DNA from: a virus
Taxonomy: Duplodnaviria; Heunggongvirae; Uroviricota; Caudoviricetes
DNA length: 13,856 nucleotides
Direction: 5' to 3' (one strand)
IMG/VR virus record: IMGVR_UViG_2585427730_000012
Under the pieces are notes generated by a model. It was not told the origin of the DNA. It worked only from the letters and a program-made list of their open reading frames with translations, and ran no database searches. Positions 1,316 to 13,856 of the stretch are shown in pieces (position 1 is the stretch's first letter; each line of letters begins with the position of its first letter). Position numbers and translations under genes: made by a program.

Positions 1316-1427
1316 AATCCGTTGAAGCCTGCTTTTTTATACTAAGTTGGCATTATAAAAAAGCATTGCTTATCAATTTGTTGCAACGAACAGGTCACTA
1401 TCAGTCAAAATAAAATCATTATTTGAT
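1316..1427. other. attL: Prophage attL (host B arm / 15-bp core 1331-1345 / phage P' arm with Int arm-type and IHF H' sites)
   Basis: Exact λ common core GCTTTTTTATACTAA at 1331-1345; upstream TGAAGCCT matches the attB left arm; downstream GTTGGCATTATAAAAAAGCATTGCTTATCAATTTGTTGCAACGAACAGGTCACTATCAGTCAAAATAAAATCATTATTTG matches the λ attP P' arm as recalled. Outer limits are approximate. Confidence 0.9.
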
Positions 1428-2489
1428 TTCAATTTTGTCCCACTCCCTGCCTCTGTCATCACGATACTGTGATGCCATGGTGTCCGACTTATGCCCGAGA
1501 AGATGTTGAGCAAACTTATCGCTTATCTGCTTCTCATAGAGTCTTGCAGACAAACTGCGCAACTCGTGAAAGGTAGGCGGATCCCCTTCGAAGGAAAGAC
1601 CTGATGCTTTTCGTGCGCGCATAAAATACCTTGATACTGTGCCGGATGAAAGCGGTTCGCGACGAGTAGATGCAATTATGGTTTCTCCGCCAAGAATCTC
1701 TTTGCATTTATCAAGTGTTTCCTTCATTGATATTCCGAGAGCATCAACATGCAATGCTGTTGGGATGGCAATTTTTACGCCTGTTTTGCTTTGCTCGACA
1801 TAAAGATATCCATCTACGATATCAGACCACTTCATTTCGCATAAATCACCAACTCGTTGCCCGGTAACAACAGCCAGTTCCATTGCAAGTCTGAGCCAAC
1901 ATGGTGATGATTCTGCTGCTTGATAAATTTTCAGGTATTCGTCAGCCGTAAGTCTTGATCTCCTTACCTCTGATTTTGCTGCGCGAGTGGCAGCGACAGG
2001 GTTTGTTGTTATATGGCCTTCAGCTATTGCCTCTCGGAATGCATCGCTCAGTGTTGATCTGATTAACTTGGCTGACGCCGCCTTGCCCTCGTCTATGTAT
2101 CCATTGAGCATTGCCGCAATTTCTTTTGTGGTGATGTCTTCAAGTGGAGCATCAGGCAGACCCCTCCTTATTGCTTTAATTTTGCTCATGTAATTTATGA
2201 GTGTCTTCTGCTTGATTCCTCTGCTGGCCAGGATTTTTTCGTAGCGATCAAGCCATGAATGTAACGTAACGGAATTATCACTGTTGATTCTCGCTGTCAG
2301 AGGCTTGTGTTTGTGTCCTGAAAATAACTCAATGTTGGCCTGTATAGCTTCAGTGATTGCGATTCGCCTGTCTCGGCCTAATCCAAACTCTTTACCCGTC
2401 CTTGGGTCCCTGTAGCAGTAATATCCATTGTTTCTTATATAAAGGTTAGGGGGTAAATCCCGGCGCTCATGACTTCGCCTTCTTCCCAT
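1419..2489 (-). CDS. int: Integrase (λ Int, tyrosine recombinase), 356 aa
   Basis: Protein begins MGRRRSHERRDLPPNLYIRNNGYYCYRDPRTGKEFGLG and ends ...REWDKIEIK, matching λ Int as recalled; adjacent to attL; overlaps xis as in λ. Confidence 0.97.
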   Translation of the reverse strand: MGRRRSHERRDLPPNLYIRNNGYYCYRDPRTGKEFGLGRDRRIAITEAIQANIELFSGHKHKPLTARINSDNSVTLHSWLDRYEKILASRGIKQKTLINYMSKIKAIRRGLPDAPLEDITTKEIAAMLNGYIDEGKAASAKLIRSTLSDAFREAIAEGHITTNPVAATRAAKSEVRRSRLTADEYLKIYQAAESSPCWLRLAMELAVVTGQRVGDLCEMKWSDIVDGYLYVEQSKTGVKIAIPTALHVDALGISMKETLDKCKEILGGETIIASTRREPLSSGTVSRYFMRARKASGLSFEGDPPTFHELRSLSARLYEKQISDKFAQHLLGHKSDTMASQYRDDRGREWDKIEIK

Positions 2490-2685
2490 TTCTGATCCTC
2501 TTCAAAAGGCTACCTGTTACTGGTCGATTTAAGTCAACCTTTACCGCTGATTCGTGGAACAGATATTCTCTTCCATCCTTAACCGGAGGAGGGAATATCC
2601 TGCATTCGCGCACCCATCGACGAACTGTTTCAAGGCTTCTTGGGCGTCGCTGGCGAGCGTTCCACTCCTGAAGTGTCAAGTACAT
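2467..2685 (-). CDS. xis: Excisionase (λ Xis), 72 aa
   Basis: MYLTLQEWNARQRRPRSLETVRRWVRECRIFPPPVKDGREYLFHESAVKVDLNRPVTGSLLKRIRNGKKAKS matches λ Xis as recalled; 3' end overlaps the int start. Confidence 0.95.
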   Translation of the reverse strand: MYLTLQEWNARQRRPRSLETVRRWVRECRIFPPPVKDGREYLFHESAVKVDLNRPVTGSLLKRIRNGKKAKS

Positions 2686-2724
2686 CGCAAAGTCTCCGCA
2701 ATTACACGCAAGAAAAAACCGCCA

Positions 2725-2892
2725 TCAGGCGGCTTGGTGTTCTTTCAGTTCTTCAATTCGAATATTGGTTACGTCTGCATGTGCTATCTGCGCCCACAGC
2801 ATCCAGTGGTCATAGCAGTCGCTGATGTTCTCGGCTTCGATAACTCTGTTGAATGGTTCTCCATTCCATTCACCTGTGACTCGGAAGTGCAT
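2725..2892 (-). CDS. Small phage protein, λ orf55-like (55 aa), function unknown
   Basis: Hand-translated from the minus strand: MHFRVTGEWNGEPFNRVIEAENISDCYDHWMLWAQIAHADVTNIRIEELKEHQAA, then TGA. GGAG sits 7 nt upstream of the ATG. Below the ORF-track length cutoff; position corresponds to λ orf55 downstream of xis. Confidence 0.65.
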   Translation of the reverse strand: MHFRVTGEWNGEPFNRVIEAENISDCYDHWMLWAQIAHADVTNIRIEELKEHQAA

Positions 2893-3134
2893 TTATCATC
2901 TCCATAAAACAAACCCCGCCGTAGCGAGTTCAGATAAAAGAAATCCTCGTCAGTGCGAGGATGCTGTTCATTGCTGCTATACACTTTTTTGCTCTCAACG
3001 TAAGCGGTAGCCCATTCTGTTGGGTTGGTGCAGTTGCTTTTAGGAAATGCTATTTACCCCTTAAATGTCGGCTGAAAGAGCTAAAATCCATGCAAAAAAT
3101 TTACGCAATTTTGTGTATTATTGTGCAGTAAGTA

Positions 3135-3737
3135 ATGAGCTATTTTCTGCGCAAAAAATGGATGGTAAATTTGTCCGGGTCAGGAAAAATTTTATGGGCG
3201 CTAAACATGAAAAAAGATTCGTATCCTTATTTGATTTGCATGACAGTTTCAGGGCTGATCTTTATTTTCCTTTTCTTCTGGTGGCGGGCAGATATCTACA
3301 GGGTCACGTTTCTTAATCAGAGTATATCCCACTATTACATTCTGTTTAGCATGGGAATAGCTTTTCTGTTATCTCTGTTTTGGGTTAAGAAGGGGATAGT
3401 AAAACAAAGCGGCTGGAAGAGTCTGTCAGCATACCTTAAGGTTTATGCAGGGATGTGCATATTTGCTGGATTTTTTCTGATTATACCCCTTACGACACTA
3501 ACTTATTTTTTGCCTGGAGAGACATCGTCTTATGTTGCACCGTATCGGTATACTTCCGGTAGTTCAAAAAGTTGTTCTGGAGCTGAGGTGGATGACCCCG
3601 ATCTACATGAGAATATTCGCATTTGCTATCCGTATGGCAATTATGAGTACGATAATATTATCTATGTTGAAAAGAAAATTAATATATTAGGTGCGGTAGT
3701 GACATATGCACAGACCGCGCGTGATGATACTGAATGA
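3135..3737 (+). CDS. Moron-encoded multi-pass membrane protein of unknown function (200 aa from first ATG; alternative starts at 3162 or 3207)
   Basis: A 200-codon open frame in visibly AT-rich DNA, where stop codons are frequent by chance. Three to four hydrophobic segments (LICMTVSGLIFIFLFFWW, YYILFSMGIAFLLSLFWV, YAGMCIFAGFFLIIPLTTLTYFL) precede a roughly 70-aa hydrophilic C-terminal domain. Opposite strand to the flanking phage genes. No convincing Shine-Dalgarno at any of the three candidate ATGs. Confidence 0.65.
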   Translation: MSYFLRKKWMVNLSGSGKILWALNMKKDSYPYLICMTVSGLIFIFLFFWWRADIYRVTFLNQSISHYYILFSMGIAFLLSLFWVKKGIVKQSGWKSLSAYLKVYAGMCIFAGFFLIIPLTTLTYFLPGETSSYVAPYRYTSGSSKSCSGAEVDDPDLHENIRICYPYGNYEYDNIIYVEKKINILGAVVTYAQTARDDTE

Positions 3738-3771
3738 TATAGTATATAGCGGGCAAGTTTTAGTTAATTTA

Positions 3772-3805
3772 TCGAGGTAATATAATTTACCTCGACTCGT
3801 TTGTT
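3772..3805 (+). terminator. Putative intrinsic terminator for the membrane-protein moron (perfect 9-bp stem, TATAAT loop, T-rich tail)
   Basis: TCGAGGTAA-TATAAT-TTACCTCGA is a perfect inverted repeat at 3772-3795, followed by CTCGTTTGTTCTGG; lies about 35 bp after the moron stop codon. Confidence 0.45.
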
Positions 3806-3947
3806 CTGGTATTAATATTTCGCTTTACGACCGATTTTTATCTGATGATATCATGCGGTTTTCATATACTGACTTACTGTCTTTTCTCCGTTAGCGATTT
3901 TCTCCTGCTCAGCGATGATTTTATCTTTGGCTTCTAGTTAATTTCGC

Positions 3948-4169
3948 TCACTTCGAACCTCTCTGTTTACTGATAAGCTCCAGATCTTGCTGGCAACTGG
4001 CACAAGTCCGACAACCCTGAACGGCCAGTCGTCTTCGTTCATCTATCGGATCGCCACACTCACAACAATGAGTGGCAGATATAGCCTGGTGGTTCAGGCG
4101 GCGCATTTTTATTGCTGTGTTGCGCTGTAATTCTTCAATTTCTGATGCTGAATCAATTATGTCTGCCAT
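3948..4169 (-). CDS. DksA/TraR-family C4 zinc-finger protein (λ Orf73 / TraR-like), 73 aa
   Basis: Contains CCECGDPIDERRRLAVQGCRTCASCQ, a CxxC-(17)-CxxC zinc-finger signature typical of TraR/DksA proteins; size and position fit the λ TraR homologue Orf73. Confidence 0.75.
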   Translation of the reverse strand: MADIIDSASEIEELQRNTAIKMRRLNHQAISATHCCECGDPIDERRRLAVQGCRTCASCQQDLELISKQRGSK

Positions 4170-4267
4170 CTTTCATTAATCCCTGAATTGTTGGTTAATA
4201 CGCTTGAGGGTGAATGCGAATAATAAAAAAGGAGCCTGTAGCTCCCTGATGATTTTGCTTTTCATGT

Positions 4268-4483
4268 TCACCGTTCCTTAAAGACGCCGTTCAACATGCC
4301 GATCGCCAGGCTTAAATGAGTCGGTGTGAATCCCATCAGCGTTACCGTTTCGCGGTGCTTCTTTAGTACGCTACGGCAAATGTCATCGACGTTTTTATCC
4401 GGAAACTGCTGTCTGGCTTTTTTGATTTCAGAATTAGCCTGACGGGCAATGCTGCGAAGGGCGTTTTCTTGCTGAGGTGTCAT
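4268..4483 (-). CDS. Small phage protein of unknown function in the orf61 position (71 aa from the internal ATG; the ORF extends to 4549 if the upstream ATG is used)
   Basis: Open frame 4268-4549; the charged, helix-like sequence begins at MTPQQENALRSIARQANSEIKKARQQFPDK, whereas the 22 residues upstream (MHFSGSGLHILCAYACRHGACS) look unlike protein. Start assignment is uncertain. Confidence 0.5.
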   Translation of the reverse strand: MTPQQENALRSIARQANSEIKKARQQFPDKNVDDICRSVLKKHRETVTLMGFTPTHLSLAIGMLNGVFKER

Positions 4484-4559
4484 TGAACAAGCCCCATGTC
4501 GGCAAGCATAAGCACACAGAATATGAAGCCCGCTGCCAGAAAAATGCATTCAGTGGTTG

Positions 4560-4751
4560 TCATACCTGGTCTCTCTCATCTGCTTCTGCTTTCGCCACCA
4601 TCATTTCCAGCTTTTGTGAAAGGGATGCGGCTAACGTATGAAATTCTTCGTCTGTTTCTACTGGTATTGGCACAAACCTGACTCCAATTTGAGCGAGGCT
4701 ATGTGCCATCTCGATACTCGTTCTTAACTCAACGGGAGATGCTTTGTGCAT
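4560..4751 (-). CDS. λ orf63-like small protein (63 aa)
   Basis: A 63-aa ORF whose coordinates map exactly onto λ orf63 when the same offset that fits exo, bet, gam, kil, cIII and ea10 is applied. Confidence 0.7.
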   Translation of the reverse strand: MHKASPVELRTSIEMAHSLAQIGVRFVPIPVETDEEFHTLAASLSQKLEMMVAKAEADERDQV

Positions 4752-4906
4752 ACAGCTCCCCGTTTATTATTTATCTCCTCAGCCAGCCGCTGTGCTTTCA
4801 GGGGATTTCTGATAACAGAAAGGCCGGGAAATACCCAGCCTCGCTTTGTAACGGAGTAGACGAAAGTGATCGCACCTACCCGGATATTATCGTGAGGATG
4901 CTTCAT
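4724..4906 (-). CDS. λ orf60a-like small protein (60 aa; an ATG two codons upstream at 4912 is also possible)
   Basis: [34 protein letters not shown]...; its start overlaps the exo stop codon, the arrangement recalled for λ exo/orf60a. Confidence 0.7.
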
Positions 4907-5583
4907 CGCCATTGCTCCCCAAATACAAAACCAATTTCAGCCAGTGCCTCGTCCATTTTTTCGATGAACTCCGGCACCATCTCGTCAAAACTCGCCATGT
5001 ACTTTTCATCCCGCTCAACCACGACATAATGCAGGCCTTCACGCTTCATACGCGGGTCATAGTTGGCAAAGTACCAGGCATCTTTTCGCGTCACCCACAT
5101 GCTGTACTGCACCTGGGCCATGTAAGCCGACTTTATGGCCTCGAAACCACCGAGCCGGAACTTCATGAAATCCCGGGAGGTAAACGGGCATTTCAGCTCA
5201 AGGCCATTGCCGTCACTGCATAAACCATCGGGAGAGCAGGCGGTACGCATACTTTCGTCGCGATAGATGATCGGGGATTCAGTAACATTCACGCCGGAAG
5301 TGAATTCAAACAGAGTTCTGGCGTCGTTCTCGTACTGTTTTCCCCATGCCAGCGCCTTAGCATTAACTTCCGGAGCCACACCGGTGCAAACCTCAGCCAG
5401 CAGGGTGTGGAAGTAGGACATTTTCATGTCAGGCCACTTTTTTCCGGAGCGGGGTTTTGCTATCACATTGTGAACTTCTGAAGCGGTGATGACGCCGAGC
5501 CGTAATTTGTGCCACGCATCATCCCCCTGTTCGACAGCTCTCACGTCGATTCCGGTACGCTGCAGGATAATGTCCGGTGTCAT
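4903..5583 (-). CDS. exo: λ exonuclease (Red alpha), 226 aa
   Basis: [65 protein letters not shown]... matches λ Exo as recalled; ATGA overlap with the bet stop. Confidence 0.97.
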
Positions 5584-6365
5584 GCAGCCACCTTCTGCTC
5601 AGTGGCTTTCTGTTTCAGGAATCCAAGAGCTTTCACTGCTTCGGCCTGTGTCAGTTCTGACGATGCGCGAATGTCGCGGCGAAATATCTGGGAACAGAGC
5701 GGCAATAAGTCGTCATCCCATGTTTTATCCAGGGCAATCAGCAGAGTGTTAATCTCCTGCATGGTTTCATCGTTAACCGGAGTGATGTCGCGTTCCGGCT
5801 GACGTTCTGCAGTGTATGCGGTATTTTCGACAATGCGCTCGGCTTCATCCTTGTCATAGATACCCGCAAATCCGAAGGCGAGACGGGCACACTGAATCAT
5901 GGCTTTATGCCGTAACATCCGTTTGGGATGCGACTGCCACGGTCCGGTGATTTCTCTGCCTTCGCGGGTTTTGAATGGTTCGCGGCGGCATTCATCCATC
6001 CACTCGGTAACGCAGATCGGATGATTGCGGTCCTTGCGGTAAATCCGGCATGTGCAGGATTCATTGTCCTGCTCAAAGTCCATGCCATCAAACTGCTGGT
6101 TTTCATTGATGATACGGGACCAGCCATCAACGCCCACCACCGGAACGATGCCGTTCTGCTTGTCAGGGAAGGCGTAAATTTCTTTCGTCCACGGATTAAG
6201 GCCGTACTGGTTGGCGACGATCAGCAATGCGATGAACTGCGCATCGCTGGCATCACCTTTAAATGCCGTCTGGCGAAGAGTGGTGATCAGTTCCTGTGGG
6301 TCGACAGAATCCATGCCGACGCGTTCAGCCAGCTTCCCAGCCAGCGTTGCGAGTGCTGTACTCAT
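5580..6365 (-). CDS. bet: λ Bet (Red beta) single-strand annealing protein, 261 aa
   Basis: [100 protein letters not shown]... matches λ Beta as recalled. Confidence 0.97.
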
Positions 6366-7719: not shown

Positions 7720-8301
7720 ATGAACAACTCATGGTGGCAGGAACTAATGCATTTTTTCCTGCAAGGAATGACACTTAAACAGTTGATTCATATGCTAATC
7801 ATCCTGATCATATTGATTATTGTTATGCCTGTAAGCGTAAAAGAATGGATAAACCTGCATAATCCAGAAATCCTTCCTCATTACTGGATGTATTACATCC
7901 TGTTGTTTTGCGTTAGCTATGTGCTTAACGGCGTTGTTAATTCCGCTTATCACGCTGTGACTGAAAGAATTGAGATATTCGCTGCTCAGAAGCGCAAATC
8001 TAAAGAAGAGAAATACGTGCAAGATTTGTTTGATTCGTTAACTCTTGGAGAAAGAGCGTATTTGGCATTCGCTGTAGCCGCTAATAACCAGCTAAAGACA
8101 GAAAAGGGAAGCCCTGAAGCAATCTCATTGCTCGAAAAAGGGCTTCTTATTCGGGTACCTTCTGCTACTGGATATCCTGAAATCGACCGTTTTGTTATCC
8201 CGGAACGCTATAGAAATGAGTGCTACATTAGGTTTGCTGGGAAGAAAGACAGTCTTATGGATGAACTTATCGCTCAGGATAAGCATGGCAAAAACAAGTA
8301 A
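7720..8301 (+). CDS. sieB: Superinfection exclusion protein B (SieB), membrane protein; 193 aa from first ATG, 184 aa from ATG at 7747
   Basis: N-terminal hydrophobic segment LIHMLIILIILIIVMPVSV; opposite strand to the surrounding early-left genes; ends 16 bp before the N-like gene, as λ sieB does; the 184-aa form matches the recalled λ sieB length and coordinates. Confidence 0.82.
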   Translation: MNNSWWQELMHFFLQGMTLKQLIHMLIILIILIIVMPVSVKEWINLHNPEILPHYWMYYILLFCVSYVLNGVVNSAYHAVTERIEIFAAQKRKSKEEKYVQDLFDSLTLGERAYLAFAVAANNQLKTEKGSPEAISLLEKGLLIRVPSATGYPEIDRFVIPERYRNECYIRFAGKKDSLMDELIAQDKHGKNK

Positions 8302-12154: not shown

Positions 12155-12649
12155 ATGAGAAAATTTATTTTAGCCTTTGTTATAAGTGCCTCGTTTACAG
12201 CAAATGCTGGTGTAGAGAAGTTAGGGCCGTGGATAACAAAGTCTGAGATAAATAAAATGACTGACCAGACTGACTTTGTGGCCCTTAATTTATCACCAGA
12301 TTCATATAACAAAGCAGGTACTGATCGTGCAACTTCACTGGTGTTGCGTTGTAGTGATAACAAAACAGATGCCTATTTATCATTCAATGATTATATGGGT
12401 TCGGACAACCCAAGAATTACAGTGCGGTTAGATGGCGGAAAGCCGGTCAAGAGTGTTTGGGGAGGTGGGGAAGGCGGTGATTCTGCATTTGCTCCACAAC
12501 CAATACAATTTATAAAGACCTTGGCTAAGCATAAAAAAGCTATTTTTGGGTTTGAACCTTATGGATCAACTATGCAAGTAGTTGAGTTTGACTTGTCTGA
12601 GATTGATAAGGTTGTGGAAAAAATTTCACAGTCTTGCAATTGGAAATGA
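12155..12649 (+). CDS. Moron-encoded secreted (periplasmic or exported) protein of unknown function, 164 aa
   Basis: Strong RBS AAGGAGA 7 nt upstream of the ATG; N-terminal signal peptide MRKFILAFVISASFTANA with an AxA cleavage site and no lipobox cysteine; two cysteines in the mature part; AT-rich; followed by its own terminator. Confidence 0.75.
   Translation: MRKFILAFVISASFTANAGVEKLGPWITKSEINKMTDQTDFVALNLSPDSYNKAGTDRATSLVLRCSDNKTDAYLSFNDYMGSDNPRITVRLDGGKPVKSVWGGGEGGDSAFAPQPIQFIKTLAKHKKAIFGFEPYGSTMQVVEFDLSEIDKVVEKISQSCNWK

Positions 12650-13175: not shown

Positions 13176-13856
<681 letters not shown>

Follow-up and report, generated by a model that had tools for sequence, protein, structure and literature searches.

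Several small proteins with which a prophage acts against superinfecting phages have been described, and they are the closest points of reference for the gene considered here. HK97 gp15, which Cumby et al. are said to have described in 2012, is reportedly a small inner-membrane protein with one membrane helix that is encoded by a moron of a lambdoid prophage and blocks the entry of HK97-type genomes; a moron, in the sense of Hendrix and Juhala, is an autonomous accessory cassette in a prophage. SieB of lambda and P22 mediates an exclusion of the abortive-infection type and acts from the cytoplasmic side. SieA of phage P22 is a prophage-encoded inner-membrane protein of 162-164 amino acids (aa) with three predicted helices and its own promoter, and it is sufficient for blocking DNA injection (PMC10883804). 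Our analysis concerns a 176-aa membrane protein encoded at positions 3207-3737 on the plus strand of a 13,856-nucleotide (nt) stretch of tailed-phage DNA (IMG/VR record IMGVR_UViG_2585427730_000012), the whole of which we call the window. We favor, at a probability of roughly 45%, the reading that the prophage expresses this inner-membrane protein and that its periplasmic domain keeps superinfecting genomes from entering, in the manner of SieA and HK97 gp15 but unrelated to either.

A further point of reference is the cos-proximal hotspot of P2-like phages, the interval between the portal gene Q and the replication gene A (gpQ-gpA) that holds old and tin in P2 itself (PMC9122126). Three of eight further cloned systems from this interval gave phage protection (PMC9122126), and a 2026 survey found empty P2 hotspots to be very rare. 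System #4 in Table S5B of Rousset et al. 2022, labeled "3 TM", is a 181-aa protein recorded with 470 occurrences and no Pfam assignment. Relatives of the window's gene lie in the same interval in P2-like prophages, at 78-80% identity in Escherichia coli and at 71% and 60% in Salmonella, and copies of 51-56% identity, those of Klebsiella michiganensis included, are also found between gene Q and gene A (alignment A2 was used for the search of loci, the broad alignment A4 being too divergent for the purpose). Because homologues of 51-80% identity occupy this defence hotspot, the guess of an earlier note on this DNA, drawn from its letters alone, that the gene is of the superinfection-exclusion or abortive-infection type gains contextual support.

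The same note did not recognise the protein, and it indeed matches no characterised family, but it is a gene of the classical phage 434, which the note had missed. Across the region 2894-3947 (1,054 bp) the window is 98.8% identical in DNA to phage 434, 98.9% to 2B8 and 99.8% to mEp332, and the protein is 99.4-100% identical to UMO75300.1 (434 CPT_434_36), XSB40999.1 (mEp332) and WP_000120065.1 (RefSeq), all of which are labeled hypothetical or "putative membrane protein". The genome announcement of 434, in which HHpred was used, gave the gene no function (PMC9119081). The region is present, at a coverage of at least 80%, in 905 of 5,426 complete E. coli genomes (~17%), and copies of at least 97% identity always lie between orf55 and a TraR-like gene, beside integrase modules of at least three different kinds. 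When 1.84 billion representative proteins were searched with a profile, only 57 relatives emerged, nearly all of ~170 aa, so that the family is small; those named are from Enterobacterales throughout and represent at least 10 genera. Two database entries deserve mention in this connection. A 3.5-kb metagenome-assembled contig ascribed to "Candidatus Nanosynbacter" (JARKOR010000073.1) encodes proteins 97-100% identical to those of this E. coli prophage segment and is almost certainly a binning contamination, and "Campylobacter phage CJLB-4" (MW057783.1) has matches of 95-96% to orf55 and the TraR-like gene at ~29038-30533 with lambda-like spacing, so that the entry looks like lambda sequence rather than a Campylobacter phage.

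The long open reading frame (ORF) that had been noticed at 3135-3737, 200 codons on the strand opposite to the lambda genes of the region, does exist, but its conserved start is the ATG at 3207. Residue 25 of the frame, a methionine, is the first residue of the homologues in Salmonella, Klebsiella, Enterobacter, Cedecea and other genera (42-78% identity), and all non-lambdoid alleles have an in-frame stop at most 10 codons upstream of it; on these grounds we take the protein to be 176 aa long. Recorded starts differ, with 200 aa from ATG 3135 in RefSeq and mEp332 and 188 aa from a TTG at window position 3171 in 434, and ATG 3207 is used by none of the three records. The P2-type allele of E. 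coli strain H3 (locus L118, 5956-6531) carries the label "frameshifted" from the Prokaryotic Genome Annotation Pipeline, yet its 176-aa frame is intact; the flag is an annotation artefact, since the reference model is the 200-aa lambdoid ORF.

Comparison of its alleles shows a real and intact gene on which purifying selection acts. The frame is intact in 51 of 52 close copies, where the earlier note had allowed that it might prove not to be conserved in related prophages, and the ratio of nonsynonymous to synonymous substitution rates (dN/dS) is 0.09-0.16 among three kinds of allele (lambdoid, E. coli P2-type and Salmonella) that have nearly reached saturation at their synonymous sites. One might still regard the ORF as a product of chance or as a decaying pseudogene in AT-rich filler, given that annotators disagree on its start (200 aa as against 188 aa from a TTG) and that the family in PHROGs that it matches covers only its last 88 residues. 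A dN/dS of ~0.1 across alleles saturated at synonymous sites, homologues in at least 10 genera and a confident structure prediction are all at odds with this idea, and an open frame of at least 200 codons arose in only 1 of 5,000 shuffles of the region, as the note had anticipated in calling such a frame very unlikely by chance. Conservation thus refutes this explanation, to which we assign a vanishingly small likelihood. The case is different for a 56-aa ORF at 2961-3131 on the plus strand, the second "putative membrane protein" of 434 (CPT_434_35), which is probably no gene: it has no P2-type counterpart, the P2-type homology begins inside it, at 3070, three lambdoid copies (L082, L095 and L097) have it in split form, and it is missing from the RefSeq annotation.

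Earlier reading of the ORF had suggested three or four transmembrane helices and a soluble tail of roughly 70 aa. Hydropathy gives three hydrophobic segments, and the tail is better described as a compact beta domain of ~75 aa that is predicted to be periplasmic. AlphaFold2, run with the family alignment, models the whole protein with a predicted local distance difference test score (pLDDT) of 87 and a predicted template-modeling score of 0.73, placing helices at residues 5-29, 38-61 and 69-101 and a five-strand beta domain at 105-171; modeled alone, the C-terminal domain reaches a pLDDT of 89.6. By hydropathy and the model, helix 1 comprises residues ~8-26 (window 3228-3284) and helix 2, which the alignment also supports, residues ~39-60 (3321-3386), while helix 3, for which the charge pattern speaks as well, comprises residues ~74-101 (3426-3509), all on the plus strand; the domain model and alignment A4 place the C-terminal domain at 3510-3734. 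Among 24 diverse members the N-terminus has a mean net charge of +1.3 and the lysine-rich loop 2, just before helix 3, one of +2.8 over ~10 residues. This positive-inside pattern argues for an N-terminus inside, loop 1 outside, loop 2 inside and the C-terminal domain in the periplasm, and we accordingly predict an inner-membrane protein of three helices with that topology. Loop 1, short and predicted to be periplasmic, carries the conserved motif IYRVTFL before helix 2, and a short strand in it is modeled beside the C-terminal domain.

No part of the protein is better conserved than the C-terminal domain, which has a mean identity of 47% versus 31% and a dN/dS of 0.06-0.11 versus 0.10-0.22. 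This domain is characterised by the motif SCSGAxVxDPxL...IRICYPxG, in which Cys123 and Cys140 are the sole invariant residues of the family in the wide alignment A4, and it holds exactly two cysteines in 24 of 24 sequences. The invariant pair fits a structural disulfide bond formed in the periplasm. The partial resemblance of SCSGAxV to the motif SxSGAxY of MliC/PliC periplasmic lysozyme inhibitors led nowhere: neither profile nor fold matched, and the motif varies within the family.

Searches for known families support the view that the ORF is not a recognisable fragment of a described gene. Pfam returned at E ≤1 only a chance match to DUF6057, NCBIfam returned no match, and the sole significant match in PHROGs was the unannotated family 1416, over the last 88 residues only. 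A sequence search of the PDB with the family profile found nothing below E = 0.28, and Foldseek found nothing at E ≤0.001 among viral models. A distant relationship to P22 SieA was considered and rejected: hhalign of alignment A4 against SieA gave a probability of 0.16%, PHROG 7745 is matched by SieA and not by our protein, and the SieA motif FxRYPxEAxxFNK is absent from A4.

How might such a protein act? According to the reading that we favor, the cassette replaced ea8.5-ea22 of a lambda-like prophage, and its gene would be transcribed from its own promoter while the prophage is repressed. The periplasmic domain, anchored on the outer side of the inner membrane and probably held together by a disulfide, would then bind a conserved element of the pathway that takes phage DNA across the periplasm and inner membrane. 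This target may be a host inner-membrane entry protein or a conserved tail-tip or ejection component; either way, genome entry would be blocked and the lysogen protected at its envelope. That the gene is expressed in the lysogen, that it excludes phages and what it targets are all things that we infer. Orientation against the pL operon, AT-richness and a flanking hairpin form, by analogy, the pattern of other prophage-expressed morons, the sieB of the same prophage among them. In its strongest form, which we offer more tentatively, the gene would be the founder of a structurally new, envelope-acting family of anti-phage proteins carried on a mobile promoter-gene-hairpin cassette, with a target such as ManYZ, PtsG or a tape-measure or ejection protein, and incoming DNA would be halted at the inner membrane.

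Several observations weigh against envelope exclusion. The cargo of P2 hotspots includes partition systems and a cytolethal distending toxin, which are not defence genes, so that hotspot position alone is no proof of defence, and the sequence of system #4 is absent from the tables of tested systems of Rousset et al. PADLOC-DB v2 (5,027 models) gave no match at E ≤1, and our search of the literature and its supplements for WP_000120065, mEp332 and 434 exclusion returned no functional data, be it phenotype, transcript or localisation, for any family member. The C-terminal domain has no sign of diversifying selection, unlike what an arms race with phage tail proteins would lead one to expect. A consensus promoter scan found no sigma-70 site upstream of 3207, and the hairpin behind the gene has a poor T-run and, in the P2-type copy, a weak stem. 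Finally, there are relatives, of 36-56% identity, that stand alone on chromosomes amid genes of metabolism and regulation (LysR, GGDEF, PTS, rstB/tus).

These chromosomal relatives occur in Enterobacter (in the order LysR-gene-GGDEF in several species), Klebsiella, Citrobacter (by rstB/tus) and Pantoea/Erwinia (after a HipA-like gene), and also in Serratia, Phytobacter, Kosakonia and Pseudescherichia. The loci contain no prophage markers and no conserved partner gene; a candidate downstream partner was dismissed because the ~200-aa neighbors in Pantoea/Erwinia and in Serratia are unrelated, the Serratia one being a GNAT acetyltransferase. Because such relatives exist, the family is not exclusively phage cargo, and a purely phage-related reading is weakened. 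The earlier proposal of a lysogenic-conversion, superinfection-exclusion or abortive-infection type of gene has partial support, from the homologues in the P2 defence hotspot, and a conserved role directed at the host is conceivable.

Lysogenic conversion unrelated to phages therefore has to be weighed: the gene may be an envelope factor, captured from a chromosome for its benefit to the host, that modulates or shields a conserved inner-membrane or periplasmic process of the host, for example by conferring tolerance of envelope stress or an immunity-like defence against colicins, bacteriocins or type VI effectors. The distant relatives, as stable solitary chromosomal genes such as those in the LysR-gene-GGDEF arrangement of several Enterobacter species, favor this explanation, and a periplasmic domain that is the most conserved part of the protein (dN/dS 0.06-0.11) would suit a conserved host or toxin target. 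Virulence cargo is also found in P2 hotspots, and the same prophage has a second envelope-directed moron, encoding a VasI/TagO-like secreted protein. Pfam and NCBIfam reveal, however, no similarity to families of colicin immunity, entry exclusion or type VI immunity; for immunity proteins of pore-forming colicins and the conjugative entry-exclusion proteins (TraS/Eex) the likeness is confined to size and helix number. Moreover, the closest relatives (51-100% identity) are without exception cargo of accessory slots in prophages, and for one of these slots a role as a defence hotspot has experimental support. On balance we consider conversion of this kind rather unlikely, though it is the most serious competitor of the exclusion reading.

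The second envelope-directed moron just mentioned lies immediately past ren, at 12155-12649 on the plus strand. It is likewise AT-rich (39% GC) and contains a 164-aa ORF with a hydrophobic N-terminus that reads like a signal peptide; this ORF belongs to PHROG 1848, has a weak VasI match (PF11319, E = 5e-6, just over the gathering score) and is named "type VI secretion system-associated protein TagO" in RefSeq.

Abortive infection by a single-gene, three-helix protein that serves both as a sensor of phage attack at the envelope and as an effector, permeabilising or depolarising the inner membrane so that the infected cell dies, is a different way to account for a stand-alone gene within a defence hotspot. 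Membrane proteins of known defence systems are widely regarded as suicide effectors (PMC9122126), which lends this idea some appeal. However, the gene has no partner sensor gene and no conserved neighbor, and its constitutive carriage in ~17% of complete E. coli genomes, together with its chromosomal location in other genera, argues against marked toxicity. The conserved, disulfide-type periplasmic domain resembles a binding module rather than a pore former, and a Foldseek match to a two-helix beta-strand effector (2TM) was not significant (E = 0.33). We therefore judge abortive infection to be improbable, and clearly more so than conversion.

Superinfection exclusion at the envelope, our preferred reading, draws on a cassette whose boundaries can be read from its two kinds of host phage. 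In blastn comparisons with P2-type loci, DNA homology between lambdoid and P2-type copies is limited to window 3070-3827 on the plus strand, which takes in the gene with ~135 bp of DNA in front of it and the hairpin behind it. The P2-like prophage of E. coli H3 (L118; NZ_CP010167) matches this interval at 76.5% over 761 nt, and the match to a Salmonella locus (L005) extends over 3074-3705. As judged from these alignments, the cassette moves between lambdoid and P2-like prophages. In the hotspot of strain H3 the gene is accompanied only by a partition system and an Ea22-like fragment; the latter, a partial ead/Ea22-like pseudogene at L118 6634-7005, lies after the P2-type copy, so that this copy was probably derived from the exo-xis region of a lambdoid phage. 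In the hotspot of K. michiganensis (L018-L020) the homologue has other company, namely a 790-aa AAA_16-type ATPase (3251-5623) and a 279-aa protein on the opposite strand (2281-3120) that likewise adjoins it; the two probably constitute a separate defence system.

The co-transferred upstream DNA contains several conserved elements. From alignment A5, a motif map and the 434 annotation, two TTGT(G) repeats lie 10 bp apart at 3111-3128 on the plus strand (TTGTGTATTATTGTGCAG). Repeats of TTGTGCA with a 10-bp period number two in the lambdoid copy and three to four at the same place in the P2-type copies (L118 5894-5934; L108 7884-7930), where an extra TTGTGCAC lies ~70 bp upstream. Single copies of TTGTGCA show no enrichment in the window, but the repeats resemble sites to which a regulator might bind. 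A near-palindrome, TTTTCTGCGCAAAAAA, is conserved at 3143-3158, and a candidate extended -10 element, TGGTAAATT, is found at 3163-3171 on the plus strand (alignment A5 and motif map), where TG[GA]TAA[AT]TT is kept in both lambdoid and P2-type copies. This element would place a transcription start near 3178, downstream of both ATG 3135 and ATG 3162, and such a start would exclude the upstream ATGs, consistent with translation from 3207. Together with the ~135 bp of co-transferred DNA, the conserved element at 3163-3171 suggests that the gene has its own promoter.

The annotators of 434 marked 3111-3124 as a match to a CII box (TTGY-N6-TTGY), and this raises the possibility that the gene serves the phage life cycle instead, for example as a CII-activated gene at the establishment of lysogeny or by modulating lysis or the entry of the DNA of the phage itself. 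That the annotated box stands just upstream of the gene and that the TTGT repeats are conserved would both agree with such a role. The same repeats, in three to four copies, nevertheless precede the gene in P2-like prophages, which are not known to have CII, and this speaks against a CII-specific role; stretches of up to 16.5 kb around the gene in P2-like loci contain no match to the window's lambdoid markers. The gene is also dispensable in lambda, which has ea8.5 and ea22 there instead, it is found outside prophages as well, and it points against the early operon. A life-cycle role accordingly strikes us as slightly less probable still than abortive infection.

Hairpins lie on both sides of the gene. 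Behind the gene, 35 nt past its stop codon, the perfect 9-bp hairpin that had been pointed out before is present at 3772-3795 on the plus strand (terminator scan and folding; -12.9 kcal/mol, z = -3.26), with a poor T-run after its stem. Its P2-type equivalent is at the same position, with one A-T to G-C double change and a weaker stem (z = -0.68), and the structure is likely to be a weak terminator or an RNA-stabilising stem. On the other side, a terminator scan and the annotation of M60848 (2292-2322) identify the leftward terminator hairpin tL4 of 434 at 2943-2962 on the minus strand (-10.4 kcal/mol, z = -2.6), at the left edge of the replacement, where it stops the pL transcript, which would read antisense through the cassette. 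Rfam has no RNA family within 2600-4300, and the svsR small RNA of prophage NC-SV is irrelevant here, as it sits at the 3' end of cI.

The cassette is carried by a lambda-like prophage integrated beside ybhC. The minus strand bears int, xis and orf55, which are followed by the cassette region and then by the TraR-like gene, genes of the orf63/orf60a type, exo, bet, gam and kil; beyond kil the order continues with sieB, N, a cI-type repressor gene, cro, cII, O, P and ren. By blastn, lambda 27724-29355 corresponds to window 1331-2962 at 98.7% identity and lambda 30380-31445 to window 3936-5000 at 97.2%, so that the homology stops at 2962 and resumes at 3936; the intervening 973 bp (2963-3935) displace lambda 29356-30379, which holds ea8.5 and ea22. 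At 38.6% GC over 2894-3947, compared with 46.7% for the whole window and 52-53% in exo and bet, the region is AT-rich as well as foreign to lambda, in agreement with the description of ~1 kb of AT-rich DNA in the place of these two genes. Of ea22 only the first five codons survive, as a 5'-end remnant (V-S-E-I-N and then a stop) at 3936-3951 on the minus strand, seen by translation and alignment with lambda; this remnant overlaps the TraR-like orf73 gene at its stop codon and, as the alignment indicates, marks the right-hand recombination junction. The interval from orf55 to the TraR-like gene varies from ~1 to 4 kb across lambdoid phages. A differently filled slot and a deviant base composition are marks of a moron, and 2963-3935 exhibits both: it is a moron made of putative upstream control DNA, one gene and a hairpin, and it is opposed to the pL operon. 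The proposal of an accessory cassette with independent orientation thus holds, the gene being on the plus strand, AT-rich, intact and under purifying selection.

Two further observations concern this prophage and its lambda counterpart. RefSeq omits the TraR-like orf73 in lambda (NC_001416, ~30400-30620, minus strand), where its 73 codons form an unbroken frame that is almost identical to window 3948-4169. At the other end, the final ~630 bp of the window (~13222-13856) match multi-copy DNA present in up to 27 places per genome, plasmids included, and look like an insertion sequence; because the best-matching genomes parallel the window only to ~13221, the prophage is interrupted or truncated past the TagO-like gene.

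Both the sequence, as a gene of phage 434, and the family, catalogued as "3 TM" in the P2 hotspot, were already known, and the new part would be the function. About one-sixth of the complete E. coli genomes have the lambdoid allele, and in the P2 defence hotspot a relative ranks fourth in frequency among the occupants. If exclusion is correct, few prophage-borne exclusion factors in E. coli would be as common as this protein, which resides within classical phage 434, a model phage since the 1960s, and the few proteins that block injection would be joined by a new family with a new fold. The protein would also help to account for patterns of lysogen resistance relevant to phage therapy and phage typing, and provide a small tool with which to probe the poorly understood passage of phage DNA through the periplasm and inner membrane. 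If it serves a host envelope process instead, it would be a common lysogenic-conversion factor. In any event the cassette attests to the exchange of genes between the accessory slots of lambdoid and of P2-like prophages, and in E. coli the P2-type copy has retained its Ea22-like fragment.

Among the systems with which we began, the exclusion gene nearest at hand is that of the prophage itself. The window encodes a SieB homologue at 7720-8301 on the plus strand (PF14163, E = 1e-25; phrog_1301; 40% GC), which is, like our gene, a plus-strand, AT-rich, membrane-associated moron within the leftward operon; the protein of 3207-3737 differs in having no match to PF14163, for which the window's own sieB serves as a positive control. 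HK97 gp15 has no sequence relation to it, only PHROG 1416 being matched, occupies another genome position and reportedly has one helix rather than three. P22 SieA is closer in that it is prophage-encoded and of similar size with three predicted membrane helices, a number that for our protein is also a prediction, but the arrangement of the helices differs, the conserved motif of SieA is cytoplasmic whereas the conserved domain here is C-terminal and predicted to be periplasmic, and the sieA gene sits between genes 16 and 9 of P22-like phages. System #4 is the one comparison in which homology is evident (52% identity over 168 aa, E = 5e-57, BLASTP). It shares with our protein its length, three membrane helices, the SCSGA...ICYP motifs and the status of single-gene hotspot cargo, and it differs in being another allele in another phage family, placed in the cos-proximal hotspot and not in the exo-xis region; the window's copy is lambdoid and lies in the slot between orf55 and the TraR-like gene, not in gpQ-gpA. 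CPT_434_36 of phage 434, finally, is the same gene in that same slot, and only its annotated start differs.

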